DNA of 64,000 bases from Lophium mytilinum. Taxonomy: Eukaryota. The notes under the pieces were generated by a model. That model ran no database searches, was not told the origin of the DNA, and worked only from the letters and a program-made list of their open reading frames with translations. Location of the stretch: contig MU004190.1 of the NCBI GenBank assembly GCA_010093605.1, positions 1,054,001 through 1,118,000 on the forward strand, given 5' to 3'. The first letter of the stretch is position 1. Each line of letters starts with the position of its first letter. Shown here piece by piece: positions 2,159 to 22,700 of this stretch. Both the position numbers and the translations under genes were made by a program.

Positions 2159-3732
2159 ATGTCCGCCACCGCCACCGTTCGCGCTCTCTCGTATGAGAAT
2201 ATCAATCCCCATGTCAAGACCGCGAAGTATGCCGTCCGCGGCGAACTGGCCGTGAGATCGGAGGAATACCGAGCCAAGCTGGCCAAGGGTGAGGGGAAGG
2301 ATTTGCCCTTTGACACTGTCATTGCAGCAAACATCGGAAACCCGCAGCAATTGGACCAGAAGCCCATCACCTTCTTCCGACAGGTCGCCAGTATCATGGA
2401 GAACCCGGAACTTCTCGAGAAGGAGGAAGTGCTAACAAAGGGTCTGGGATACAAGCCGGACGTGGTTGCGAGGGCTAAGAAGCTGCTTGCGGCGGTCAAG
2501 AGTGTGGGGGCATACAGCCAGAGCCATGGCGCTCCGGCCATCCGAGAGAGTGTTGCTAAGTTCATTGAGCGTACGTCTGCGAAGTTAGGTTGGAGAGTTA
2601 CAATGCTTACATCTTAATCTAGGACGAGACGGATACCCAGCCGAAGCTGAACATGTCTACCTCAGTGCCGGTGCTTCTTCAGGCGTCAACACCCTCCTCC
2701 ATATCATGTGCTCTAAGCCCGAGAGCGGTATCCTCGTTCCAATTCCCCAGTACCCTCTATACACTGCTACACTAGCCGTCCTCGATGCGCGTGTGGTCCC
2801 ATACTACCTCGACGAGAGCCAGGCATGGGGCACCAATCTCGGCGAGATCAAGAGTGCGTACGATAAGGCCATTGCCGAAGGAACCGACGTGAAGGCCATT
2901 GTCATCATCAACCCAGGCAATCCCACAGGCGCCAGTCTCCCTGCCGAGGATATCAAGTCGGTTTTGGAGTTTGCCGCCGAGAAGAAGCTTGTCGTCATGG
3001 CAGACGAGGTCTACCAAACCAACGTCTTCCAGGGCGAGTTCATCTCTTTCAAGAAGGCTCTCCGTGATCTCCAAAAGGAGGTCCCCAAGAAGTTCGACAA
3101 CATCGAGCTCGCGTCGCTACACAGCGTGTCGAAGGGCATGGTCGGCGAGTGTGGACACCGTGGCGGCTACTTCGAGCTCATCGGCTTCGACGAGAAGGTC
3201 GCGGCTGAGATTTACAAGTTTATCAGTATTCAGCTGTGCCCGCCCGTCATGGGCCAGTGCATCGTCGAAATGATGGTAAACCCGCCGAAGGAGGGCGAGC
3301 CAAGCTACGAGCTGTATAAGCAGGAATACGACGGTATCTTTGATGGCCTGAAGAAAAGGGCGTATGCGCTCTACGAGGCTTTTAAGCAGATGGAGGGTGT
3401 CAGCTGCAATACTCCTGCTGTAAGTTGATACTTGACTGGTCTATTCGATTTACTCGGACTAACGAGGTCTCAAGGGCTCCATGTATCTCTTTCCCACCAT
3501 CACCATACCCGAGAAAGCCATTGCCCAGGCCAAAAAAGAAGGCCGCGAACCCGACGACTTTTACTGCTTCCGTCTACTCGACGCTACAGGCGTCTGTGTC
3601 GTCGCAGGCTCCGGCTTCGGCCAGAAAGAGGGTACGCTGCATTTCAGGACGACGTTCCTGGCCCCCGGCACAGACTGGGTGGGTAGGATCGTGAAGTTCC
3701 ACAAGGAGTTCATGGATGAGTTCAGGGACTAG
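2159..3732 (+). CDS. ALT1: Alanine aminotransferase (class I PLP aminotransferase), 2 introns (~2571-2622, ~3420-3473)
   Basis: YAVRGEL, ANIGNPQQL, IINPGNPTG, ADEVYQTN, PLP-lysine motif SLHSVSKG...GECGHRGGY, GSGFGQKEGTLHFRTTFL. Confidence 0.93.
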
Positions 3733-4745: not shown

Positions 4746-6398
4746 ATGTCCAAAGAAACAACATTTGATTTCGTTGTTGTCGGAGGGGGAACAGCTGGTG
4801 TTGTGGTAGCCTCCCGCCTCAGCCAAAAGTTCAGCGTTGCCCTCGTCGAAGCAGGCCCAAACGATATACTCAACCCACACATTACAGACCCTAAAAGCTT
4901 CCTGATGCTCATAGGAGATGGTATTCTCATGGACTACTCAAGTGTTCCTCAAAGCCACTGCGACAACCGAAATATGACCCAATTTGCGGGTCGCGCCGTC
5001 TCTGGATCTAGCGCGGCCAACATGGGGGTTTGGACAAGAGCGTCAAAGACCGACTATGAGGTGATAGCGGAAAAAGCAGGCCATCGGAGGTTCACGTTTG
5101 AAGGGTTGTTGCCTTATTTTAAACGTACGGAGCATTTCTGGGATACTGCGGCGGATCCCAAATATCATGGCTTCGACGGGCCAATCCACACAACCGCTGG
5201 CCGGAAATATCCAATGCGTAACATATTGCAACAGTCTTTCTCCGCTAGGGGAGTCGAGACGAATCCGGAGCCTTCCGATGGCGACCCGACAGGCCTCTCA
5301 GCTGTCTGCCAGAACTTTCGAATAACATCGAGCTCTGACTCGACAAGACAGCATAGCGCACGGGTATACGACCTCTCTCGAGTGCACGTGCTAGCTTCCA
5401 CTTTCGTTAGAAAAGTGATGTTTCAAGAGGGTAGGGCAACAGGTGTCGAACTTCTCGACGGCAACCAACTGCTCGCTCGCCGTGAAGTCATCATCAGCTG
5501 TGGCGCCTACAAGACACCTCAATTGTTAATGTTATCAGGAATCGGTCCATTATTAGAGCTATCTAAACATTTCATTCCCCAAGTCGTAGACTCTCCTGAA
5601 GTCGGCCGCAACCTCTTTGACCACAACTCCCTTGTCCAATACTACCAACTCCGCCGCCCGGAGAAAGGCTTCGCCCTCCCTTTCACAGGCACTGCAAAGC
5701 CCGAGTACGGACAAGGCGCGCCATCAGACTTCATCGCCTTCCAAGCTCTCCCAACCCCAGACCTCAAAGCCGCCCTCGCAGCAGACGACCCCACTATTGA
5801 CGATCTCCACCCACATCTCCGTCCGAAGCGCTGCCACCACATCTCAATGGTCTTCTACAACCCCCTAATTGCCCCACCTGACTACAGTTCTCACCTCGGA
5901 GGCCCCTTAGATGGCACTCACATCGCCCTCATATCCCTCCTACTCCTCCCCACCTCCCGCGGCAGCATAACCCTCCCCTCTACCGACCCAACAGCACACC
6001 CTATCATAGACCCAAACTACCTCTCCACTTCCGCGGACCGCTACTCCCTCCGCACCGCCGTGCGCCGCAACTTGCAGCTCGCAGAGACCGAGCCGCTCGC
6101 CAGCGAACTTGTAGCAGAGACGCCGCCAGATGGATTCCCGGCGCTAACGTCCCGCTCCAGCGACGAGGAAATTGATGCTAGGATTAGCAAGTTTTGTGGA
6201 ACTATTTACCACGCCCAGGGCACGGCGGCGTTGGGGACGGTATTAGACGCTGAATTTAGGGTTAAGGGAGTGAAGGGGCTGAGGGTTTGTGATGCGAGTG
6301 TACTGCCGGAGGCTGTAGGGGCGATGCCGCAGGCGACGATTTATGCGCTGGCGGAGTTGGCAGCGGAGCTCATTGGAACTGAGAATGGGGATGAGTGA
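4746..6398 (+). CDS. GMC oxidoreductase (AA3-type flavoprotein), intronless, no evident signal peptide
   Basis: FDFVVVGGGTAG FAD motif, GRAVSGSSAAN, TPQLLMLSGIGP, VGRNLFDH, C-terminal GLRVCDASVLP. Confidence 0.92.
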   Translation: MSKETTFDFVVVGGGTAGVVVASRLSQKFSVALVEAGPNDILNPHITDPKSFLMLIGDGILMDYSSVPQSHCDNRNMTQFAGRAVSGSSAANMGVWTRASKTDYEVIAEKAGHRRFTFEGLLPYFKRTEHFWDTAADPKYHGFDGPIHTTAGRKYPMRNILQQSFSARGVETNPEPSDGDPTGLSAVCQNFRITSSSDSTRQHSARVYDLSRVHVLASTFVRKVMFQEGRATGVELLDGNQLLARREVIISCGAYKTPQLLMLSGIGPLLELSKHFIPQVVDSPEVGRNLFDHNSLVQYYQLRRPEKGFALPFTGTAKPEYGQGAPSDFIAFQALPTPDLKAALAADDPTIDDLHPHLRPKRCHHISMVFYNPLIAPPDYSSHLGGPLDGTHIALISLLLLPTSRGSITLPSTDPTAHPIIDPNYLSTSADRYSLRTAVRRNLQLAETEPLASELVAETPPDGFPALTSRSSDEEIDARISKFCGTIYHAQGTAALGTVLDAEFRVKGVKGLRVCDASVLPEAVGAMPQATIYALAELAAELIGTENGDE

Positions 6399-7118: not shown

Positions 7119-7285
7119 GCTCTCTTCTTCTCCGCTCTCTTCTTCTCCGCTCTCNNNNNNNNNNNNNNNNNNNNNNNNNNNNNNNNNNNNNNNNNNNNNN
7201 NNNNNNNNNNNNNNNNNNNNNNNNNNNNNNNNNNNNNNNNNNNNNNNNNGCTCTCTTCTTCTCCGCTCTCTTCTTCTCCGCTCTC
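7119..7285. repeat. 15-bp tandem repeat (GCTCTCTTCTTCTCC)n spanning an assembly gap (N run 7155-7249)
   Basis: Identical units on both sides of the N run; true copy number unknown. Confidence 0.9.
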
Positions 7286-7910
7286 ACCTCCTGACTCCAT
7301 TTTCACCGATTTTCAAACCCTACGATAAGCTTCCTCTGCCTGTTACTTCCTACATCTTGATGACGTGCACTTCATATGTTCCTTCTTGTGTCAACATGGG
7401 CCACTGTCAGGGAGTAGCGGTGGGGGCAGGCACGTGTATACAGCCTCACCTTTCTCCAAACCTCTTCTCTCCTACATCATCATTCATACAATACATCATG
7501 TACATGGCCTACAGCTTGTTCCGTGACAGCACTTCTGACTCTGAAGAGCGAGCAATGTGGCTACCGATGTCGTGCAGCGACAAACGGGTTGTATAACGAG
7601 ACATTTAATAGGTGATAGCTAGAATGGAAGACTGTGTATAGCTGTCCTACCGGCTACATTCGGTGACTTGAACTGACACATCTACAGGCACGTGGCCACG
7701 ATTTCGTTTTGCCAGATGTTCGTTGAAGCGGCCGGGACAGCGCAGAGAGTAGGAAACTATGAAGTTACGAGTGAGCAAGTGGCGAAGCAAAGGATGTTTT
7801 TTAAGCAGAGAATAGTAAGTTAGTCTTTAGTCTTAAAGCATAGATTACTCTCAAACCCTCAGCACTCCACAAAAGAGTTAAATACTAGTATCTAACCAAA
7901 TACTACAGCA

Positions 7911-8645
7911 ATGTCGTTTTCGGAAGATCCGCCCTCTGGAACACCCTTTCGCCTTGAACATCACATTATCGACGTACTAGTAAAGATCGATGGACATCCC
8001 GTCATGGAGCTCTCCGCAACGACAGTAACACATGGCTGTGAACACTGCGGTCAGATATGGGGCGGCAATATCGGCGATGGCTACGAAGGAGGAATGGCGT
8101 CGCTACATTTCGGAAGTCCTCCTGGGCACGTCGAATATCCCGACAGCCAGGCTCCAAAGTTTCTAGGCTTGTTCGTCGAATCAGAAGTCAACCAAGGTCT
8201 CCGAATGACGTTTGAGAAGCGAGAGGTCACCTGCAAGAGATGCGGAGAAGCTCTAGAGCGTAACGCTCCACATTCTAATCTCGGAGCTATAACGATACAA
8301 ACGAAAAATATCGGCTCCGCAATGAATCCGACAGCGCAGCCACCGCGTCGCCGGAGAAATGTGAGAGATTCACCACCGCCTTGCGAGAGGAACTGCTTGA
8401 TCACAGCGCGGAAAGACCTTGAGGAGATGGAGATTGAGGTGAATAAGCATATAAAGAATGTCAAATACTACGAGGCAAAGCTTGAGGGGATGCCGGCCAG
8501 CCAGCGAGGTCCAGAATCGGCGGTGTGGTTCTACCTTATCAAGGCGCGCGACGATTCGAGGAAGTGGCTTGAAGATAATGAGGGAGTTGTGAGAGAGTTA
8601 AATGGGAGGCTGACTGCTTTACGGCATGGGGAATTCGACGAGTAG
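7911..8645 (+). CDS. Hypothetical protein with two CxxC modules and a helical C-terminus (CxxC family member 1)
   Basis: 244-aa intronless ORF; HGCEHCGQIW and FEKREVTCKRCG; probable 5'UTR intron (GTAAGT ~7815...CTAAC...TACAG) just before the ATG. Confidence 0.7.
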   Translation: MSFSEDPPSGTPFRLEHHIIDVLVKIDGHPVMELSATTVTHGCEHCGQIWGGNIGDGYEGGMASLHFGSPPGHVEYPDSQAPKFLGLFVESEVNQGLRMTFEKREVTCKRCGEALERNAPHSNLGAITIQTKNIGSAMNPTAQPPRRRRNVRDSPPPCERNCLITARKDLEEMEIEVNKHIKNVKYYEAKLEGMPASQRGPESAVWFYLIKARDDSRKWLEDNEGVVRELNGRLTALRHGEFDE

Positions 8646-9194
8646 CAGCCTGAGACTACTAAATTATGCAGCGGACGGAGAAATCTATAATTGCCTGAGA
8701 AACGTGATGAGCGGGAAATCTAGGCTTCCAAAGTTCGGTACAAGGAGCACTGAATCCATAGTTGACTCGGAAGGCCTAGGCTACCCGTTGAGCACCTAGG
8801 AGCCCCATACCCCTTGGGGCGGTTATATAGCCACAGCTGCGCCCACAGATAGTCCACTATGCAAACAATCGCCAATCCCGCATACTACCATGTCACGTGA
8901 CCATTCTTAATAAATTCCGAAGTTTGCGAAGCCGAAACCTCAAAGTTGTTCTCCTCGAAAGCTGTCAAGTGATCCTAGGTGATTAATAAGCTTATTTCGA
9001 ATTCGTATTAGCCGTCTATCAGAAAACTGGGCATGTATTCTGAGCATTGGCTGTCACGCGCGGTCTCCACCATCTCCCCATCAATACCCGCCACCGGTAT
9101 CTTGAGAGCTACACGGACCCAGATCTCAATTCCACAACCTTAGATTAGGAGTCTTGGGAGGAGCATACAGGGACTTTTGCGGAAACCCTGAAAG

Positions 9195-10232
9195 ATGGCA
9201 TCCCTCCTGACCCTACCTCCCGAGCTGCGGCAGGCAATCATCTCGAACTCTCTATCAATCGAATATAAAAAGACGAAAGACCAAAGGTTTCACATCTCGA
9301 CTCCGTTCCATGCCGTGTGCAAGCTTCTGGAGGAGGACATCAAAAAGAGCATCCCAAGTTGGCTACCCGAACCAGCCACTGGCTGCCTTGCCCCAATTCG
9401 GAAAATTGGAGATATGTATTGCGTCGAAGACATCAACAATCACTTCGTCAATATCGCAAAATCATCGAATCGCACTTGGACCGGTATACAGGAGCTCAAT
9501 GTTCAACTTGTGAGGGACGAAGGTCTCGAAGGCTTTATAGAACATGGTTTATCGGGACAGCATGGCTGGCCTTACGCGTTCTATATACTATCGTATATGA
9601 TCCATAACGGCATACGCAACGTCATTCGCGGCCCACTCGTTCTTCCTGAAAGCGTTGAAGTCATCAAAGTCGATCTCACGATACCCCCGAAAGCTTGGGC
9701 ACTGCTGAACATACTTGGCCAGCCGCACTTGGACGTGCCGATGCAAATGTTCACAACGCCAAGACCGGGGCAAGAATCTATGTCCGGGCAGAGCTTATTC
9801 TGGCGGACGCTTTTCAAAAAAGTTCATGAATTAGTTAATCATATTCGTTATGCTCCTAAAAGAGCGCGAAACCTGTCAGTTGAGATCGTGGGAACAGCAC
9901 CAGAAAGTCAACTTGAAGTAATAGCTCAGGAACCAGACTGGAGCCTCATTTGGAAGCTCCCTCAAACCTCGCAAGTGCGCGGGCCTCCCATGCCTGTCGA
10001 CTTTTCCAAATTTGTGAAGAATGTTCGAGCCAAAAAAGCTGAAATGGTCCTCGAAGAGGAGAGGAAGCGAATCCTCGAGGCAGACGAAAGAGCGATGAGA
10101 GCAAAGAGACAGAAACAGGAGCTGGCAAAGAACATGGGCGAGAAGGCAAGGCGGCGGAAGGAAGAGACTAAGAAGAGGAGGAAGGAGTGGGCCCAGAACA
10201 TGGCGGAGATTCGGAAGAAGAAAAGGGAATAG
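9195..10232 (+). CDS. Hypothetical protein with F-box-like N-terminus and highly charged coiled-coil C-terminus
   Basis: 345-aa ORF starting MASLLTLPPELRQAII (L-x-x-LP-x-EL-x-x-x-I); K/E/R-rich tail. Confidence 0.7.
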   Translation: MASLLTLPPELRQAIISNSLSIEYKKTKDQRFHISTPFHAVCKLLEEDIKKSIPSWLPEPATGCLAPIRKIGDMYCVEDINNHFVNIAKSSNRTWTGIQELNVQLVRDEGLEGFIEHGLSGQHGWPYAFYILSYMIHNGIRNVIRGPLVLPESVEVIKVDLTIPPKAWALLNILGQPHLDVPMQMFTTPRPGQESMSGQSLFWRTLFKKVHELVNHIRYAPKRARNLSVEIVGTAPESQLEVIAQEPDWSLIWKLPQTSQVRGPPMPVDFSKFVKNVRAKKAEMVLEEERKRILEADERAMRAKRQKQELAKNMGEKARRRKEETKKRRKEWAQNMAEIRKKKRE

Positions 10233-10837
10233 TGAGAGCAAGAGAACAAGAGGTATGGATAGCTTGTCTGACACTACTTGAGACATATCGATTTATTTCC
10301 GAAAAGACTAAAGCACGAACTCTGAGCTGCAACCGCATACGCATTTGCGTTAATCCACTCCGGTTCTCAGACGCAGCAGACACAGGTGTACAGCGGGATC
10401 ACAAGTATGAACATGGACTTACCACTACTCAGGCTTCAATCTTGTTCGCTCCACATCACTGGCAGGACTGGCCAAACTAGCAAATGTTCGATGAGCTAAG
10501 AGACACGTTTTCTGTACTAGACTGATTCCGACGGTGTATTCAGATCTCCAGAATCCCATGGGCTGACCCCAACCAGTTATGACACATGTGCCTAGAATTT
10601 CGCCAAACACTCCTCGTAAGACTTCTCTAGGAGTGCATATATTTTTTAGTGCTTTAGTGACGTTCTTTGAAGTGTACACAACTCATTGAAAGCGGATTAT
10701 ATCGGTAGTCAAAGGTGAGTCATCACACATAATATTCAAGATCCCTGAATTGCTCTCTATTGCTGTCGCTAGATTGCGAAAGGAAGAGTGATGTGCCACC
10801 TACATAGCCAGCCTAGTAGATTTCACCAAGCCTCCTG

Positions 10838-11566
10838 TCAGAGTTTCTCCACATTCCCCTCCAGTACCTCCTTTGAAATCTCCTCTGTAACTCTCAGAGG
10901 TCGCTGGATCACCCACTCTACCCCTTCAAGAGTCAGCATCTCCTGCTTCCACTCCTCCACTTTCAACTTCTCCAACTTCTCCAACATCTCCTTCATGTCC
11001 AGAACCTCTAGCTCGTTTGAATCAGGGAGCTCCCCCTCCCGGCGCTGTCCCTTATACACCACCTTCCAAAACTTGTTCACCTTTTTCTTCCATCCCTTCT
11101 CCATCTCCACCTCTGGATCCTCGACATCCACCGTCTTCACACGAACCAGAATCGCCTTCTTCCCACCCGGCAACTCGAACACGAAGTTCGGCTGATACTC
11201 CGGGGGCACGTGCGTCTTCACCCACTCGAACTCCTCATCGCCCATCATCAGCGGGCGATCCGCATCCCAGAGATCCTTGCCACAGTGGATGCAGGACTGA
11301 TAGCAAGGGCGGAAGTCGCTGATGACCATGCCGTCGAAGAGTGGCAGCGTGTAGGGCTCGCCCGTAGCGACGAAGGTAGGGTCAAGCCAGACCTTGTCGC
11401 AGTGGCGGCAGTGGCGCGACAGGCGGCCGAAGCCGTCGACGCGGGAGCGGATGAAACAGGGGACGATGCAGGTGCTGCGGGGGCAGGGCCAGGAGAGGTA
11501 GGAGTCGCCGCCTGCGAAGACGAGTGGAGAGGACTGGCGGGCAGGTTTGGGGGTTTCGGTGGACAT
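10838..11566 (-). CDS. Hypothetical protein with two CxxC modules and a K/E-rich C-terminus (CxxC family member 2)
   Basis: 242-aa ORF; FGRLSRHCRHCDKVW and FRPCYQSCIHCGKDLW; TATAAA ~70 bp upstream on the minus strand. Confidence 0.75.
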   Translation of the reverse strand: MSTETPKPARQSSPLVFAGGDSYLSWPCPRSTCIVPCFIRSRVDGFGRLSRHCRHCDKVWLDPTFVATGEPYTLPLFDGMVISDFRPCYQSCIHCGKDLWDADRPLMMGDEEFEWVKTHVPPEYQPNFVFELPGGKKAILVRVKTVDVEDPEVEMEKGWKKKVNKFWKVVYKGQRREGELPDSNELEVLDMKEMLEKLEKLKVEEWKQEMLTLEGVEWVIQRPLRVTEEISKEVLEGNVEKL

Positions 11567-12247
11567 GGAGGGTGTTCTTGAGTTTTGGTGGGTATTTTTA
11601 GGTGTTTGAATTCTTGATATTTGATTATTGGATTTATATCGTAAGTAAGTTGTTTAAAATTTGAAAGGTAAAAGTCTCCGTTGACTATCTTTTATATGTG
11701 GGAATATTCGCGGGTAAGTGAAAGAGTTGCTTGCTGGAGTACACGCTGGCGATGCGAGCTGGCTGAATACGTGAACGGCGCAGAAATTCCACAAGCCCTT
11801 CACTCCCGGGTCAGCAGTGTATGTACACCTAACTACTTCGCCTTGAAGTGCTGAGGCACTCCTGCCAGTGGTGTCACGAGGGGAATATAGAAGCGTGCGG
11901 GAGCCGGATTCGTGGCGCTGGGTGGAGGTTGCTAGGAGCTTACGCTTCGTGTTTGGAAGTTCGTCAACATCTCCCTTAAGCGTATGCTCTAGGTCTATGA
12001 AGCTGTCTTGGTTCCGCGGGCCCCCAGGTACTGATCCGGTACTTCGGTCTACCAGACACCGTGTAGTATTAATGGCATCACCAGAAGGCACGTAAGGCTT
12101 GTCTACCGTGTCTGATAGAAGAGCATATGAGATATTTTGATGGCTTCTTCATCCTCCTGCACGCTTTTGAGTCTCCGAGGCCTGATTTGCTCAATAAAAC
12201 GAGGGCTATACTTGAGTTCCAAGGGAGACCCCCAAGGTAGTCCACTT

Positions 12248-13375
12248 TCATTTGATATCTGCACCAATTCTGCTAAATTTTAGTACATAGCTTTCCCCAG
12301 CGGCTTCCCAAAAGTTAGCTTGGTCATAATCAGCACGCTTTGAAAATGTTGAATCACCTGGCACCTTTTCGGTCCTCGTAGAGTTCTTCCTATGGAAGAC
12401 TCTGCTCACTAAGCTTCTCTGGCCCCCGCCTTTCACAGCGTCCTGATTCTCGGTCTTGGCTGGCGGCTTAAGAGCAGTTCGTAGCTTGAGCGGTGCCATG
12501 GCCCCCGCCGGCAACGATTGAGCAGCCAACGTGTCCAGAAGCAGCAACGCATACGGCCTCTTCTCCTCGCCCGCTGGAAGATCTGTCCACCGCTCCTTAC
12601 AGTGCCCACAGACGATACTGACATCACAGAAGCGATAGCAGATCTTGTCCACAATGACCGGAACACACCACGCCTTTCGGATAGTTGTCCACCTCTGACC
12701 GCCCGGCTTGTCGATTGACCAAGGAACTTTACCGCAGCAGCATCGCTTGTCGATTTTTCGGAAGTAGGTGATGTATCCATTTTCCACTACGGCTTCGATG
12801 GTCGACTTCTGGGGAATGATTGACGAGAAGACGTCGGCATTCTGAGCCTCGGTGATATAGGGACTGAAGATTGGAGGGTCTTCTATGTTCCATTCAGATC
12901 GTGGCTCTCCTATTTTGATGACCAAAGGCTCTGGTAGATTCCATTCGGCTGCTCGGGTTGGGTACTTGGAGAGGGAGTAGGAGCTGTGGAGGACTATATG
13001 ATAGTCGCCACCAGCTTCTTCACTGCCGTCGACCCAGGTTTTGTGGCAGCTGATACATCTCGTAGATATGGTGGCGAAAAGATAGCAGACATTGCCGTCT
13101 TTAACGGGAAAGTAGTCATAATCGTATGGGCGCAACTCCATGTTGTGGTCGTTGTTTAGAAGTCTGGCCGGCTCATGCCAGCAGCTGCGGCACACATTCT
13201 CGACCACCTGGAAGCAGAGCATCTCAGACCCGTTGTGAGCTAGCTCGACTATCTTGCGGTCGCCATTACACCTGCCTCGATCGTCTGCGTCCGCTAGACC
13301 TATTGGATGCCGTCGGAGAAGGGAAGCGGTTTCTTGAAGTCGTCGGGGGCTCGGATATTGGTAAGGGCGAGGCAT
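12248..13375 (-). CDS. Hypothetical protein with four CxxC-type modules, internally duplicated (CxxC family member 3)
   Basis: ATG at 13375 (MPRPYQ); FQVVENVCRSC, FATISTRCISCHKTW, FRKIDKRCCCGKVPW, FCDVSIVCGHCKERW. Confidence 0.75.
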   Translation of the reverse strand: MPRPYQYPSPRRLQETASLLRRHPIGLADADDRGRCNGDRKIVELAHNGSEMLCFQVVENVCRSCWHEPARLLNNDHNMELRPYDYDYFPVKDGNVCYLFATISTRCISCHKTWVDGSEEAGGDYHIVLHSSYSLSKYPTRAAEWNLPEPLVIKIGEPRSEWNIEDPPIFSPYITEAQNADVFSSIIPQKSTIEAVVENGYITYFRKIDKRCCCGKVPWSIDKPGGQRWTTIRKAWCVPVIVDKICYRFCDVSIVCGHCKERWTDLPAGEEKRPYALLLLDTLAAQSLPAGAMAPLKLRTALKPPAKTENQDAVKGGGQRSLVSRVFHRKNSTRTEKVPGDSTFSKRADYDQANFWEAAGESYVLKFSRIGADIK

Positions 13376-14107
13376 GTTTTCAGGATCCACAGATGTGTCT
13401 CAGAAAGATGAGGCTCTGGGTTGATATAAGGCTGGATGAACCTGGTGGATATATTTTCTGGTGGTGGATTTAAGGAGTGAGAGTGAGCCTTGGGGGGTAA
13501 GCGAGTGGTAAGTTACTGCTTTAGGTGTACGCTCTACCACTGCCTTGTGAGCACTACCACAAAGTCGGTGAAATATGCCACGAACTCGGTGAAGTTGGCT
13601 TGCTGGCTGACCATTCAGAAGGAGTCTATGCGCGTTTCAGCTTCACTCATTGGCTACCATGTGACTTTGAAATCCACGTCACTTTTGTGCACGAGACACC
13701 ATGCAACCCTTGGTAATTCCCTCTCTCACTGGCCCCCATCCTGCAATATATCAACGTCGTACTGTATGGTTTTGAAAGGTGGCGAGTTGAATAATGTGTT
13801 GATTGGCAGGTAAGCATATAGTAGGCTGACGCCAGTCCTGCAAGGCTGATGACGCTAGATCATGACCGCTTTTTAGCTGATCCACGTAGGCTGAGGCTCA
13901 AATCAAGAAAATGATTGGTACCCATAAGGAATAAACGTACAGATACAATGACTCCGTACTGCTAAGTGTAGGTAAGCAAATAGCCGCAAGAGCAGCAGCT
14001 GAAGAGCACGTGACCTGGCGCTTCCATCATCGTTTTGTCCTGTATATTTACTACCCATCTACCTTGCAAGTATTAAAAACGAGTTCGTCTTACTGCTCCA
14101 TTTAACG

Positions 14108-14797
14108 TTATAGATCAACATCAAAATCTTCGACTAGCAGAACTTCATCAACATCCTCTACCTGGGTCCAGCCCTCTTCATCAGAGTCCTTCGATTCTCG
14201 GCCAACCTGGATGTGCACATCCTCAGAATCCTCATATAAAGTTCGAGTGAAGGTCCATAGTACTTTCGCTAATTCACTCTGAACACTTTTCCCGTCGCGG
14301 GAATGACTTCCTAGTGTCGCTTTGTCCTTGAGAGCCGCCTCCTGGAACCTTTCGATCCACTCATTGTCCATGATTATGGCGATACCGTTCTCTTTTATCG
14401 CAATCTTGGTCTCTAGTTGCTTGGCTGAAAATGATAGCCTGATAGCGCCTTCCGGGCATCCGGCCGCAGGTAGGGGAGTTGCATCGACACCAACGGACGT
14501 CGAATATTGAGGAATCGGTGTCAACATGACTTTTGAAGTCGAAGCAAACTCCAGAGGTGGCGTTAAAGTGATATCTGTTGTCAGAGCGTCTTGTCCGAAG
14601 CCGTCACTCTCGAAGCCTTCTTCCTTGAAGTGGGCTAGGAAAATGGAGTATAAAGTTGAGGAGTCCATGTTCTTGGTGGGGAGAGGGCTCGCCTTGGTTG
14701 CTTGATCGGAAGGTTTTATGGAATCAGAAAGTGCGCTCATAGGCACGATAGGAAACGTTGACAGCCGGTCATGTGCGCGTTGGCACCCTCGTGGCAT
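14108..14797 (-). CDS. Hypothetical acidic protein (true start may be the downstream MSALS or MDSST)
   Basis: 229-aa ORF; acidic tail DSDEEGWTQVEDVDEVLLVEDFDVDL. Confidence 0.6.
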   Translation of the reverse strand: MPRGCQRAHDRLSTFPIVPMSALSDSIKPSDQATKASPLPTKNMDSSTLYSIFLAHFKEEGFESDGFGQDALTTDITLTPPLEFASTSKVMLTPIPQYSTSVGVDATPLPAAGCPEGAIRLSFSAKQLETKIAIKENGIAIIMDNEWIERFQEAALKDKATLGSHSRDGKSVQSELAKVLWTFTRTLYEDSEDVHIQVGRESKDSDEEGWTQVEDVDEVLLVEDFDVDL

Positions 14798-14962
14798 TTC
14801 TCCTACGTAGCAAGCAGTCGTTTTCGCCTCGTGGAGATACCTTCACTTTCTTACACCTCGTTGAGCCCTTACCAACATCCTCGACATACCATATCCCAAC
14901 TCTTACAGCTTTGTGAAGATAAAGTAAACACTTAAAGGGTTCCAACATCGATAAACGACAAA

Positions 14963-15361
14963 ATGCCCTTCCCTTTCAGCTCACTCTTCCCTCAAAAGAA
15001 GAGATACTATCACCCCGACTTCGGCTACGTCGAACCAAGAGACTTCCACAGACTCTCGCATCGGGCAGACTTCCACCCCACTGGCTACTACGGCTCGGCA
15101 GGCGTGTTTCAAGGTAATGAGTTCCACGCACAGGAGCATCAAGCGCGTGAAATGCAACGAGAGCAAGAGCAAGAATACCAGCGGCAGGAGCATGAAATGC
15201 AGCGGCAACAAGCACGCGAATATCGCCGAAAGATGGCACGCGAGCAGCGTGAGATGGGTGGCGCTCACCGTGAGCGCAATATGGGTAGGCGAGACATGCA
15301 GGAAGGTGGGTATGGCCGGCCAAGAGGTCGTAGAAACCGTCGGGCTCCGGAATATGACTAG
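14963..15361 (+). CDS. Small hypothetical protein, Q/E/R-rich coiled coil with RG-rich tail
   Basis: 132-aa ORF with ACAAAATG start context and biased low-complexity composition. Confidence 0.6.
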   Translation: MPFPFSSLFPQKKRYYHPDFGYVEPRDFHRLSHRADFHPTGYYGSAGVFQGNEFHAQEHQAREMQREQEQEYQRQEHEMQRQQAREYRRKMAREQREMGGAHRERNMGRRDMQEGGYGRPRGRRNRRAPEYD

Positions 15362-15565
15362 GAATGCCCGAATTATAGTTTTAGAGGCCCTGATGAGTGG
15401 TAACGGGGTGATGAGAACCCGGAAGTAGATAGTGAAAGTGAAACAAATAGCTTGACAGTGTTGGGCTGACTATCGTTGGATAGCAAGCAACCAAATCTGA
15501 AGCATCCAAAACTGAATGTGATGCCCTGACCTTCTCAAATATGCTATAGCCGAAGGAATGTCAGC

Positions 15566-16180
15566 ATGTCTTTTCCAAATTCCTACTCCGACCCTTGTCA
15601 TTATCACCGCCCCTCAGACCATCATCGCCATCATCCTCAGGAAGACCACCGAGAAACGGTGTACAGCAGCTACAAACTTGTTCCTCAGAGGCAGATTCGC
15701 TGCGACAGAGATCCTGGAGGAGTGTACTACTCCAGATACGATCCCTTCCGTGAGGGGCACCCGAGACTGAAGCACTTCAACATGAGCCCGCGGGAACACA
15801 GAAGGATCGATCGGACCCATTTCATGGTTCCCGACCAGCGCAGACCTCACGACTATACCTCGGCGCAGGATCCCCGAGACTTCGCCACTTACCAACACGG
15901 CTATGCAATTAGCAATGGTGATGGCGTGAGCAACACGAAAGCTGTATCTCGGTACGATCGCCACGTTGAAGATGTCGGATACGGTTTGTCCTCGGGTCTT
16001 TGCTGTGCGGAGCAGTATTCTGAACATACAAACTTCCAGATGCATGGCCAAGAGTTTGACGTATACTCTTATCGACACAAGCCCCGCGGTGACGGCATCG
16101 AACGCGTAGACCATATTGTTGATCTATGCAAAGCCGACTTGAGTAGATTAGGCGGGTTTCCAGTCATAATCAGCTTGTAA
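15566..16180 (+). CDS. Hypothetical His/Tyr/Arg/Asp-rich protein
   Basis: 204-aa ORF; no recognised domain. Confidence 0.55.
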   Translation: MSFPNSYSDPCHYHRPSDHHRHHPQEDHRETVYSSYKLVPQRQIRCDRDPGGVYYSRYDPFREGHPRLKHFNMSPREHRRIDRTHFMVPDQRRPHDYTSAQDPRDFATYQHGYAISNGDGVSNTKAVSRYDRHVEDVGYGLSSGLCCAEQYSEHTNFQMHGQEFDVYSYRHKPRGDGIERVDHIVDLCKADLSRLGGFPVIISL

Positions 16181-16520
16181 GGCCTCATACGCTATCAAAG
16201 AATATGTTTTGTGTAGAGATATCATCGTACCTAGAGTTTCGAAAAGCCTAACAGCGAAGAATGCATGTACTTAAGCTCCTTTTTTAGAGTATGAATGCCA
16301 CTGTCAGGTATACCCCGGCTCGAACATCTCCGATTCGTCAAAAGGTAGCGCAATTTCCGTTGTGCGGACTTCTGGCCACTTTCAATTGGCAAGTTTCCAT
16401 ATTCCGTCTACTCCGCGGTCTGTAATGACACATACGCAACAGAAACATGCCAGTGCTCGCAATTTAATGGCTAGTTGTAGATGGATTGGTTTCTGTATTT
16501 GTACCCTACTTGATAGCTGC

Positions 16521-17834: not shown

Positions 17835-19352
17835 ATGAGTAGGACCCGCGCGCTTACTCTCATAGTTCTCTCCCTTCTCGGCATCTTTGCGGCATACCAC
17901 TATAACCGCTCCACCATGGCTACCACCCCCAAACTCATCCCAACCAGCGCACTCGCTAAGAACGGGGCAATAGTCGTCGGTTCAGGCCTCGCTGGCCTCT
18001 CAGCCGCCTCCCAACTAATTGCAGCGAATATCCCCGTCCGTCTGCTTGAGCGGAACGCAAAGCCAGGCGGTAACTCCATCAAAGCCTCATCCGGCATCAA
18101 TGGCGCCCCTACTCCCTTCCAGCCTGGTCCTCCAGACACAGAATTCTACGCCGACACCGTTAAATCAACGGGCCACGCCATGAGCACAGCCCGCGAGCAC
18201 CGCGAAAAGCTAATTGGCACACTCACCAACTCTTCCGCCTCAGCAGTCACGTGGCTCACAACTACCCACGGCATCGACCTCAGCAAAGTCGCTCAATTGG
18301 GTGGCCACTCCCGCGCTCGAACACACAGGGGAGCGGGCGGGACACCCCCGGGATTCGCCATCGTTTCGACTCTCCTCAAAAGCCTGAAAGCAAGCCCACT
18401 TTTTGAGCTCAAGACTTCCTGCACCGTAAACCGCCTCTTGCTTTCCGGCGCCTCCATCACAGGCGTCGAGTACACCTGCAGCTCGCCCGAAGCTGAAAGC
18501 ACCACCTCAGAGCTCCATGGACCTGTCATAGTAACCACAGGAGGTTTCGCAGGCGACGACACCGGCCTCCTAGCCACCCACCGCCCTGACCTCGCAAACT
18601 TCCCATCAACCAACGATCCCGCGCCGGGGTCTACGCATCTCCTAACCTCCGTCGGTGCGCAGCTGCTCGACATGTCCAGCGTCCAGGTCCACCCGACCGG
18701 CTTCGTGGATCCCGCGACCCCGCTCTCCCCGCTGAAGTTCCTCGCCGCAGAAGTGTTGCGTGGGGAGGGCGGGATTCTACTCCACGACGGGGAGCGCTTT
18801 TTCAACGAATTGGACACGCGTGAGAAAGTCACGGCTGCAATTTTGAAGAACGATCCGGTTGAGGAGAAGCCGAAGCAGTGGGATGTGCTATTAGTGTTAG
18901 ATGAGGGGGTTTATGAGGCTGCGAAGTCGCATATTGATTTCTACATCTTCAAGGGGCTGGTGCGGAAGACGACAATTGGGGACCTGGGGGATAAAGCATT
19001 GGCTACGATCAGCGAGTACGCGGATGTGGTTGCCGGCAAGCACGAAGACAAGCTTGGCCGGACTGCTTTCGCGGATTGGGAGCTGTTGGAGCCGAAGGCG
19101 GACTCGATAGTGTACGTAGGGAGAGTGACGCCGGTGGTGCATTTCACGATGGGCGGCGTGGTTATTAGCGAGAAGGCTGAGGTGCTAGACGCGCAAGGAG
19201 TGCCCATTGAGGGCGTCTGGGCCGCTGGAGAGGTAACTGGAGGCGTGCATGGAGGGAACAGGCTAGGTGGGTCGAGCTTGTTAGAATGTGTGGTCTTTGG
19301 GAGGAATGCAGGAGAGAGGGTGGTAGAGTATATCAAGAATGAAGGAAAGTAA
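17835..19352 (+). CDS. OSM1: FAD-dependent fumarate reductase (Osm1/Frd1-like, flavocytochrome c flavin subunit family)
   Basis: IVVGSGLAGL, GGNSIKASSGING, LGGHSRARTHRG, VQVHPTG, EVLRGEGG, HFTMGG, GVHGGNRLGGSSLLECVVFGR; N-terminal hydrophobic segment. Confidence 0.9.
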   Translation: MSRTRALTLIVLSLLGIFAAYHYNRSTMATTPKLIPTSALAKNGAIVVGSGLAGLSAASQLIAANIPVRLLERNAKPGGNSIKASSGINGAPTPFQPGPPDTEFYADTVKSTGHAMSTAREHREKLIGTLTNSSASAVTWLTTTHGIDLSKVAQLGGHSRARTHRGAGGTPPGFAIVSTLLKSLKASPLFELKTSCTVNRLLLSGASITGVEYTCSSPEAESTTSELHGPVIVTTGGFAGDDTGLLATHRPDLANFPSTNDPAPGSTHLLTSVGAQLLDMSSVQVHPTGFVDPATPLSPLKFLAAEVLRGEGGILLHDGERFFNELDTREKVTAAILKNDPVEEKPKQWDVLLVLDEGVYEAAKSHIDFYIFKGLVRKTTIGDLGDKALATISEYADVVAGKHEDKLGRTAFADWELLEPKADSIVYVGRVTPVVHFTMGGVVISEKAEVLDAQGVPIEGVWAAGEVTGGVHGGNRLGGSSLLECVVFGRNAGERVVEYIKNEGK

Positions 19353-19707
19353 GGTTCATTTAATAGTCTGAATGTGAGAAATAAACTCCACTTCCTTTTC
19401 GAAGTCGCCATGACGCCAGGCGATAACAGGTTTAGCGTGTTACTAGAGTGTGTTAAGGGTAGTTCGTGCATCACGTACTCCCGTTTCCAATCCTTTCTCA
19501 TCTTCAACCCCGAAGGATCGTGAGAGAAGAGCGTATATCGAGAAATGGAGAGCATGTGATGGGAGAAAGAGGATAGCATGAAATACGGCAATATCGTGCC
19601 CTTGTTTAAGTGTTGCGAAAATGTATATACTAGTGAGAACGTTTCGTGATTCAACGCATAATAAGTGAGGTGGAAAGAAAATACTTCGTGCCCTCACCAA
19701 GATCCTT

Positions 19708-22700
19708 CTAGAGCTTCCACCCCCATAACCAAGCCTCCAAAAGATCGACCGTGATTGGCTCAAAGTCAACTCTAGAGGCCGCCGCCGCTCTTTTTCTATC
19801 CGCCGGGGACCAGTGATACCCCATACCGTCCCCAAACACCCTATACGCCTCCAAGAACCCTAGCGCCCCCGTCTCCATTACATCCATATCCCCCTCTTTC
19901 CCTCTCCTCTCCAACTCTCCCACCCACTCCGACAAGCTCACCGTCCTCAAATTCATCCTAAACCTCTCCCTCAACGTCCTGACCACAATATCCCAGGGCT
20001 TAGGCCTCGGATGCACAAGGTTGAACACCCGCGGTTCCTGATCCTGTCCCCCATCTTTAGTATCTACGACCTCCCTCACCATTTCCGCGAGCTGGTCTAC
20101 CGGCGCCCAATCAGCCATGACAACGCGCTCAGGAACAATTCCCATAACCCTAGACGCCCGAATCAGCGAACGCAGCCACTCCTGCTCCGCCCACAGCCCC
20201 TTCCTCAGATCAGCCGGCCCACCCATCTGGCCAATGCGGAGAATATCAACAGGCACTGCTGACCGCTGGCACGCGATCTCGAGCATGCGTTCACAGACCC
20301 ATTTGCCTTCGGAGTAGCCCCGTCTTAGCGCTGACCCCGGGTTATCAATCGGTGACTCCATATATAGGGCGTCATCAGGTTTGACATGCATCTCGTTTCT
20401 GGCCGCGCAAGCAGAGGAGATGAAGACAATGCGGGGCCGGCGAATACTAGTGACGGACCAGTCGATGACGTGACGAAGGCCACAGATGAAGGGCGTTTCG
20501 AAAGCCTCGAGCGGGCTGGCAAAGTCCGGCTTCCAGGCGTTGTAAAGTATGACGTCGACATCATCTATTAGAATTTTGCAGAGGTTGTGGTCGAGTGAGA
20601 GGTTTGGGAGGCTGATATCGATGGGTAAGTAAGCTGCTTTGAAAGCAGCGGGGTGTGAAGCGGCAACGGGCGGAGGAGAAGCGGGATAGGTATCCATGCA
20701 GTATATTTTTGACACCCAGGGAGACTCTAGAAGGGAGAGAAGGAGATGGGATCCGAAATAGCCTTCATAGCCAATCAGAGCGATATGCTTTGGGAAGAGG
20801 AGGGGGGGCTGGGGTATTGCGGCCCTGGCGATTAGCCCTGATGTATGTTTTTTGACCATTGCTTGCATGCTGATGAAGCGGACGTCATTGTTGTCTTGAC
20901 TAGGAACGCCTTTCAGAGTGAGGAACTTGTAGACAGCAGTCGTTATTCCCTGAACTGTTGAATTTAGGTAAATCATTCGTGGTGATATCCACGAGACATC
21001 AGCGGTCGGTAAGACTATTTGTAGACCAAATCTGAGCCTTGCGACGATCTCACCAATTTGGAGATAATCAAGGCCGTGAGAGAGGAGATCCTTGCGAGAG
21101 CCTGCTTCTGTTGATGCCAGGAAGCACTGAGAAAGGATGTCATGGACGAACCGTGCAACATCTTCCATCTTGAATGTTTTTTCGGTCGAAGGCGTCAAAG
21201 GAAATCCAACATCCGGATTTGCAACCCTGTCCTGAGAGTACAAATGGTCGAGTTCCAACTCATAGAGTTGCTCCGTCAGCTTTCTGACGATAGTGCCCTT
21301 GGAAGCTCTGGCGAAGGGCTTCTCCGGGTTTGCTACTAGTATTCTGGATCGAAGTATCTTTCCTTGCACTGGGGCAAGCCGATTGGCCTCTTTTACGAGT
21401 GGCCACACAAGATCCAGGATTCGCTCCCGTGCTACGTCCACGTTCAATGCTAGCTCAACCATCAGCGCCGGCTGAGGTCTACCTTGGCCGACAACAAGGG
21501 CACCGGTTAGGAGCGAAATATTTTGAAGGGCCATCTCTATGGGAACAGCGTTGAGAGTATGGGCGCCGGAAAGAACTATGATGTCATCCTTACGGCCATA
21601 GTATCGCCAGAGGTTCGGCTTGGTCGGATGGGGACTGAACAGGTCCCTGGTGTGATACCGGGTAGTACCAGGCAGACTGTGGTATAAGCCGATGAAGTCC
21701 TTGGTTTTTTTATCCACACTAACTACAAGCTCAAATGTCTGCTCTTGATCACCTGTCTTCTCCATTTGAACATTCATGTATGGATTCCATTCCACCCAAC
21801 TCCAGTCCTCTGGTCCCGGAGCAAGGTGAGGCAGGCAAAGTATTTCAGTAGATCCATAGAAATTGATTATGTCGGTCACTTGGCGGATCCGTTCTGCTAT
21901 GCCTAACGACAATGGTCCTCCGGTAAAGACGAGATGAGCCAATCCTCGGAATACATCTAGTCCGCCTGGCTCGAGGAATAAATTTTCGATAGTCGCGGGT
22001 GGAAGATAGAGTACTCGGATGTTCTGGTGGCTTCGTATTTCTTTTATAAGGTAGACACTTGGAGGCATAAGGGGTGGGCCTAAAACTGGAAACGCCGATG
22101 AAAAAAGCGGGCCAACTTCGATAGAGTCAGCAGAATATTCATTCATCGGACTCGCAAAGGTCAGCTTACCCACTAAAGCTATGAATCCAGCAAGCTACCC
22201 CTTCGTAAGCATAAGACCTACCAGTCCACATTACAAGCTTACATGATAGTGAGGGAGTACGCTATAGAAGCGACCCCAAGTGTTCCACGACGAAAAGTCC
22301 TGGTTCTCTCTTCCCGGAGTGCTTGGGAGATTTCGCTGATTATCAAGGACTGCAAATGAGCCATGTGTCAGAAAAATAGGCTTAGGGTGACCTGTTACGT
22401 ATCAGCGTTGCCGATATCATCCATCATTTCAACTACCTGTCGATCCCGATGAATGCATTATTGCCACTTCTCTCCGACTATGCGTATCGAAACGCTCGTT
22501 ATACTGATACAGTTTGGGAGTACTGTACAGCATCTCCCTGAATGCCGGAATCTCATCGCCGATTAGAGAGGGCTGGATAGCATGTAGTTGCCGAACCAAA
22601 GGACTGACTTCTTCCGCGTAAAGAAGTTGGTAGCAGTAGGTCTGCTGAAGCAACGAGATGTTTGTTGCAGAGAGGTTTCTGATGGATAGGAACAAGACCT

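Follow-up and report, generated by a model that had tools for sequence, protein, structure and literature searches.

A narrowly distributed candidate family of cysteine-knuckle proteins built from paired hairpin modules in Lophium mytilinum

Within a 64,000-nucleotide (nt) stretch of the Lophium mytilinum genome (contig MU004190.1 of assembly GCA_010093605.1, positions 1,054,001 to 1,118,000; hereafter the window, to which all coordinates refer), we analyzed three neighboring genes at 7911-8645 (+ strand), 10838-11566 (- strand) and 12248-13375 (- strand), whose products we label P0001, P0002 and P0003. They probably form a family that is young and taxon-restricted. Its proteins would be intracellular, with paired half-modules, each a β-hairpin ending in a cysteine knuckle, making up predicted structural Zn(Cys)4 sites. 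The feature itself is real, and an undescribed cysteine-knuckle family of narrow distribution is a plausible reading of it; its closest general kind is the zinc-knuckle β domain. In a word-index protein search, the three open reading frames (ORFs) were identical or near-identical to hypothetical proteins already deposited for Lophium mytilinum. This wood-dwelling ascomycete is placed in the Dothideomycete order Mytilinidiales, and the window is therefore fungal nuclear DNA.

The initial annotation of the window had described eight copies of two alternating modules, A and B, in these ORFs, and had noted that in seven of them a Phe precedes the first Cys by exactly six residues. All eight modules are present as described, and the seven Phe residues are F101 of P0001, F46 and F85 of P0002, and F55, F100, F205 and F249 of P0003; the exception is the C43 module of P0001. 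The pattern F-x6-C-x2-C occurs nine times in a six-frame translation of the window, six times inside the three ORFs (the seventh Phe-bearing module has a C-x-C knuckle and falls outside the pattern) and three times in open frames of 41, 41 and 70 codons, a count that overstates the significance of the enrichment because the motif was picked after the sequence had been seen. Independent support comes from conservation: across the aligned orthologues, no substitution affects any of the seven Phe or any knuckle Cys. For P0003, the eight knuckle Cys recur in each of four orthologues, among them the Glonium stellatum homologue P0012, which is ~34% identical and keeps all four F-x6-CxxC modules; P0001 and P0002 each likewise have four knuckle Cys that do not vary among their respective orthologues. 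The matches at ~15231 and 16650 (- strand) were rejected as family members, each lying in a 41-codon frame that is overlapped by longer frames.

In P0003, unit 1 (residues 37-160; 12896-13267, - strand) holds the B1 module, F55-x6-C62-x2-C65, followed by A1, F100-x6-C107-x2-C110-x3-W114, while unit 2 (residues 188-300; 12476-12814, - strand) holds B2, F205-x6-C212-x-C214, followed by A2, F249-x6-C256-x2-C259-x3-W263. At the B2 knuckle, three Mytilinidiaceae-type sequences have C-x-C and Glonium has C-x-x-C; the Cys pair has therefore survived an insertion or deletion. The A half-module of P0002 (residues 34-74; 11345-11467, - strand) opens with VP and comprises F46-x6-C53-x2-C56-x3-W60-x-D and a PYTL strand, and the adjoining B half-module (residues 75-100; 11267-11344, - strand) has a DG turn and F85-x6-C92-x2-C95-GKDLW. 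P0001 contains an A-like half-module (residues 26-50; 7986-8060, + strand) with a DG turn and C43-x2-C46-x3-W50, which has no Phe at position -7, and a B half-module (residues 93-112; 8187-8246, + strand) with an NQG turn and F101-x6-C108-x2-C111-G.

Comparison of the N-terminal part of P0003 (37-160) with its C-terminal part (188-300) gave an hhalign probability of 98% (E 2.6e-13, 103 columns). As read from this repeat, the real unit of P0003 is ~105 amino acids (aa) long and internally duplicated, running from a B knuckle through ~40 residues to an A knuckle and a hydrophobic strand, Y-x-L-x-L. The repeating element of the initial annotation is thereby refined to this longer unit of B then A. 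In a MAFFT alignment the four A modules fall into register and share an invariant P, C, C and W. The A and B halves of the unit are similar to one another as well (hhalign 76.6%, E 2.2e-5, 30 columns), with a score of 25.8 against 11.9 ± 2.3 (maximum 20.8) in 200 column shuffles that kept the CxxC block, none of which reached 25.8. The elementary piece is therefore a hairpin with a D/N-G turn, the Phe, six residues and the Cys pair.

We consider P0002 and P0003 likely to be homologous. In hhalign comparisons, their families match each other at 71.4% (E 3.6e-5), and P0002 matches a profile of eight units at 82.7% (E 9.6e-6, 77 columns), with a separate match of its second knuckle to the B part of that profile (16%, E 0.0016); none of 200 CxxC-preserving shuffles reached either score. 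Without guidance, MAFFT aligned the A module of P0002 with A2 of P0003. Pairwise BLASTP among the three proteins was weak, with a best E of 0.001 for a single comparison.

The word-index searches returned three, three (one being the query itself) and two matches for the three proteins, and their orthologues came only from Mytilinidion resinicola and two further records. The three Mytilinidion orthologues all lie on one 446,750-nt contig, which supports, on gene order, a conserved local cluster as the initial annotation had supposed. They are 71-82% identical to the Lophium proteins, and the ORFs are conserved in other fungi at 54-82% identity; for the accompanying description of the family as old and fast-evolving we found no supporting evidence. 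An exhaustive HMMER search of 1,835,955,588 representatives with the P0003 profile produced four matches at E ≤ 0.001, of which three are real: the Mytilinidion cluster, Glonium stellatum OCL09878.1 (183 bits) and a 125-aa fragment. The fourth, the 745-aa repeat protein P0014, was rejected as spurious, with nine short stretches that all fall on profile positions 148-183, Gly/Asn-rich repeats and no Cys knuckles. P0015, which belongs to the cluster of the fragment, and P0009, a relative of P0002, each have 6955 nt recorded as the length of their longest contig; if this is one and the same contig, as we read it, a third organism would share the tandem arrangement. Glonium belongs to the order Gloniales, and on the evidence of these searches the family is seen in two related orders, Mytilinidiales and Gloniales, and nowhere else at this search sensitivity. 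Two metagenome locus scans gave zero confirmed loci. A literature search for six locus tags, with supplements outside its reach, found no paper, and among the titles examined from a search by species name, a part of those returned, none concerned these genes.

In the arrangement that we propose, each half-module of ~40-45 residues would be a β-hairpin with a D/N-G turn and the Phe on its second strand, ending after six residues in a Cys-x2-Cys knuckle, frequently with W or G-x2-W just behind it. A structural Zn(Cys)4 site would be shared by two consecutive half-modules, each supplying one of two Cys pairs that lie 39-65 residues apart. The site would pin two small β-sheets together, the conserved Phe and Trp forming a small core beneath the metal. 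The 12248 gene would encode two such units in tandem, B-A-B-A, arisen by internal duplication, the 10838 gene one A-B pair and the 7911 gene probably also one, each domain being followed by a charged, helical or basic low-complexity tail. Such a protein would act as a rigid zinc-stabilized binding scaffold for a protein or nucleic-acid partner, and not as an enzyme. That one A and one B module form a Zn(Cys)4 site had been suggested at the outset and fits the eight invariant knuckle Cys of P0003; zinc binding itself, the pairing of the knuckles, the fold, the intracellular location and the scaffold role are what we infer from these patterns. A role in conflict or defense, suggested at the same time, gained no supporting evidence.

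Several observations weigh against the proposed arrangement. The half-modules are ordered A then B in P0001 and P0002 (65 and 39 residues apart) and B then A in the unit of P0003 (44-45 residues apart), a reversal that makes the knuckle pairing uncertain; since A and B are alike, any two neighboring half-modules could form one site. The orthologue alignments are shallow (two to four sequences, effective number of sequences 1.2-2.7), which leaves the hhalign probabilities soft, Cys-rich composition inflates profile scores, and the shuffles destroy local β-strand patterns, so that the null they provide is lenient. P0002 furthermore contains C28-x4-C33 and C88 (~11301-11485, - strand), which are invariant in orthologues, lie outside both knuckles and are not explained by the proposed site; these three Cys could be part of a second metal site. 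An AlphaFold2 model of the whole of P0003, built from four sequences, was unusable, with a predicted local distance difference test score (pLDDT) of 32.0. Finally, the link to P0001 is weak, its family matching that of P0003 at 0.8% and that of P0002 at 7.5%, and the unit profile at 5.9% (A) and 0.9% (B).

These last values bear on a narrower reading, in which only the 10838 and 12248 genes are paralogous and the two CxxC pairs of the 7911 gene, lineage-specific and unrelated to the others, are a coincidence. We regard this as possible, if on balance doubtful, and place P0001 within the family with a confidence that barely exceeds even chances. The narrower reading gains from the BLASTP comparisons with P0001, which were limited to 12 residues around one CxxC, and from its A-like module, which lacks the Phe and needs two one-residue insertions or deletions to align. 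However, the knuckles of P0001 both find their counterparts, A and B, in the unit profile, and in the order seen in P0002; the sum of these two matches, 40.3, was reached by none of 200 shuffles, and the best single score, 22.5, by two of them. Its B module also retains VE...NQG-x4-F-x6-CxxC-G, and the gene lies 2.2 kb from the other two, an arrangement conserved on one Mytilinidion contig. The shared module first claimed for all three proteins is well supported for P0002 and P0003 and weakly for P0001.

Searches against known families agreed with the initial statement that the proteins belong to none that is recognized, as Pfam gave no match at or near threshold. Using hmmscan against Pfam-A at E ≤ 10, a search in which the HMMER filters drop most matches above E ~0.1, we obtained no row for P0002, P0003 or their orthologues, and zf-3CxxC came up for none of the eight proteins scanned (P0001, P0002, P0003 and five orthologues). 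The B knuckle of P0001 had only sub-threshold zinc-ribbon matches (E 0.034-0.17; 12.3-14.6 bits against cut-offs of 29-34.4), the best being Zn_ribbon_8 at residues 98-117 with 14.6 bits against a cut-off of 34.4. Sequence searches of the PDB with three profiles gave nothing better than E 0.45, and the best ESM Atlas scores, 0.78 and 0.79, were below any useful level.

Zinc ribbons (Zn_ribbon_8, Zn_Ribbon_TF, Zn_ribbon_4) resemble the proteins described here in having two CxxC knuckles, each on a predicted β-hairpin, with one zinc presumed, and in the CxxC-G and CxxC-x2/3-W context. The knuckles of classical zinc ribbons are roughly 10-25 residues apart, whereas here they are separated by 39-65 residues, each lies six residues past the conserved Phe of its hairpin, and the unit measures ~105 aa. 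A loose likeness to zf-3CxxC (RTP/ZAR1-type) domains, also raised in the initial annotation, gave no signal in Pfam. Those domains have a first knuckle of the CxxC-x3-W-x-[SD] type and three CxxC pairs each; the first-knuckle pattern is shared, but each ~105-aa unit contains only two conserved Cys pairs, and we identified no His that is conserved as a partner.

We modeled unit 2 of P0003 with AlphaFold2 from a nine-row alignment (orthologues, Glonium, the fragment and the P0002 family; the row of the N-terminal unit failed to align). The unit gave a best model with a pLDDT of 69.3 and a predicted template modeling score of 0.53, the other four models reaching a pLDDT of 47.0-55.4. The model has a hairpin of strands at 4-11 and 14-22 followed by C-x-C, a second hairpin of strands at 50-55 and 58-66 followed by CxxC, and a strand at 88-98. 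Foldseek found no match to it in the PDB at E ≤ 0.001. In the non-significant list, 23 of 42 rows, rank 1 included, were cereblon/CULT (21), Mis18a-yippee (1) or the DRH-3 C-terminal domain (1), all 23 having E 0.71 or worse, a template modeling score ≤ 0.20 and a root-mean-square deviation of 11.5-17.6 Å.

The proteins in these rows point to the β-tent fold, a likeness that we treat as a lead and not as a placement. As set out in part of the published account, this fold comprises two four-stranded meanders with internal pseudosymmetry and an apical zinc held by two Cys pairs in two CxxC motifs (PMC4287342). The meanders stand at a right angle, and a ligand or substrate cradle lies beneath the zinc. 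The unit might be a very divergent member of it (among CULT, Yippee/Mis18, MsrB and the RIG-I C-terminal domain) in which the symmetry of the halves is still visible, although we think this unlikely. The unit does approach the ~100 aa of a β-tent domain, with one structural zinc presumed and Cys pairs 44-45 residues apart against ~45 (C62/C65 to C107/C110 and C212/C214 to C256/C259), a feature that is not specific to this fold. The A and B halves furthermore show a pseudo-twofold symmetry at the sequence level, and a CxC variant of the first Cys pair, described for the member family GFA in the same part of that account (PMC4287342), parallels the B2 knuckle. On the other hand, the Foldseek rows are all non-significant and mostly redundant entries of one protein, Pfam gave no match to the member families at E ≤ 10, and neither sequence nor three-dimensional comparison was significant. 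The model has about five strands instead of eight, their number and order being predicted only. The halves compared here are still similar in sequence, whereas β-tent halves lack such similarity according to the available part of the account (PMC4287342).

Gene models were examined with contigs from one public run, which we guessed to be RNA, its type not being recorded, and which contains 58% of sampled words of 7700-13600. One contig omits 12304-12357, joining 12303 to 12358 (CT..AC on the + strand, and thus GTGATT...GGGAAG as intron ends on the - strand), and the deposited 357-aa model of P0003 is without the same 18 codons. As the contig skips a GT..AG stretch that is also absent from the deposited model, the run includes spliced RNA, and a single in-frame intron of 54 nt (- strand) interrupts the 12248 gene. 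Its 375-codon ORF hence corresponds to two exons encoding 357 aa, with two ~105-aa units in tandem and a basic tail that looks disordered. The three genes had been described as intronless, which is incorrect for this gene and correct for the 10838 gene, whose 242-aa product consists of a Cys-rich N-terminal domain (residues ~26-105) and a conserved charged C-terminal half. An 864-nt contig collinear with 10767-11630 spans the entire P0002 ORF, and contigs over 11848-13600 and further include all of P0003; both genes are transcribed. The run yielded zero contigs over 7700-9078, a result that is uninformative on whether the 7911 gene is expressed. The 12248 and 10838 genes lie in tandem on the - strand, with 29 nt (11631-11659) uncovered between a contig ending at 11630 and one starting at 11660, and the contigs cannot tell read-through or co-transcription of the pair.

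The 7911 gene is a single ORF of 244 aa and a candidate, weakly supported member of the family. In its deposited Lophium model, P0011 (263 aa), both ends are replaced and the first CxxC is lost; P0011 differs at the 3' end and takes in an upstream exon that overlaps the ORF at 7360-7596. Over the full length of P0001, N-terminal CxxC included, its Mytilinidion orthologue P0010 shows 82% identity. Because this orthologue supports the plain ORF throughout, the single-ORF model at 7911-8645 is probably the better one and P0011 a misprediction. Upstream of the gene, at a distance of ~660 nt, 95 consecutive N (7155-7249) mark either an assembly gap or masked sequence.

These data also bear on whether unrelated ORFs, perhaps non-functional, might have come to share zinc-knuckle-like patterns through chance or convergence. 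Zinc ribbons commonly contain CxxC-G and CxxC-x3-W, the motif was defined only once the sequence had been viewed, and pairwise BLASTP is weak. The internal repeat of P0003, the shuffles that never reach the P0002 score, and the spliced and collinear contigs over two genes nevertheless largely refute this explanation for the 10838 and 12248 genes, and the identity levels in other fungi, with invariant knuckle Cys and Phe, speak against it as well; we consider it highly improbable. Just as improbable is that they are small, secreted, disulfide-rich and effector-like proteins, with Cys pairs forming disulfides and not a metal site: they are Cys-rich, lineage-restricted and encoded by clustered genes, as is typical of fungal effector candidates, but their Cys content is just 2.5-4.2%, CxxC pairs after hairpins have the geometry common to metal knuckles, the long charged tails suggest an intracellular protein, and by direct reading the N-termini of the three proteins are polar, with no hydrophobic signal-like stretch in them or in the orthologues, which favors zinc over disulfides. 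The proteins are most likely intracellular.

Between the 7911 and 10838 genes lies an intervening gene (9195-10232, + strand) encoding a 345-aa protein, P0004, over which an RNA-type contig is collinear with 9094-10030. With three Cys, no knuckle and no Pfam family, P0004 was ruled out as a family member. It has a long Lys/Glu/Arg-rich tail and an N-terminus, LPPELRQAI..., that may be F-box-like. The genes form part of an island without Pfam matches at 7900-16200 (7911+, 9195+, 10838-, 12248-, 14108-14797- and 15566-16180+), flanked by a GMC oxidoreductase (4746-6398) and a FAD_binding_2 protein (17835-19352). At 17835-22146, the FAD_binding_2 oxidoreductase adjoins an 812-aa ORF with AMP-binding_C_3 and NAD_binding_4 domains, which resembles a carboxylic-acid reductase or an NRPS-like enzyme. 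Together with an aminotransferase fragment (2706-3428), these two genes may constitute a small biosynthetic neighborhood.

Fungal genomes very commonly encode hypothetical proteins restricted to one lineage, and the wider importance of these genes is limited unless their fold or partner proves unusual. One such outcome, which we judge improbable, is that the ~105-aa unit is an undescribed zinc-pinned, pseudo-symmetric β domain, either β-tent-like or of a new fold, that was tandemly duplicated while its halves stayed similar. Lupas and co-workers proposed a sub-domain duplication for the β-tent fold, a proposal that, in the available part of their account, is left unsupported for lack of internal sequence symmetry (PMC4287342). 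The unit would then be a young, legible case in which a sub-domain peptide of hairpin and knuckle was duplicated to give a folded domain. If the broader reading of a paired-knuckle family is right, the three genes would define an undescribed cysteine-knuckle domain family that merits a Pfam-type entry and is confined to two sister Dothideomycete orders. With three levels of duplication still legible, those of the half-module, the unit and the gene, it would offer a compact case study of the origin of small metal-stabilized domains and of local gene families.

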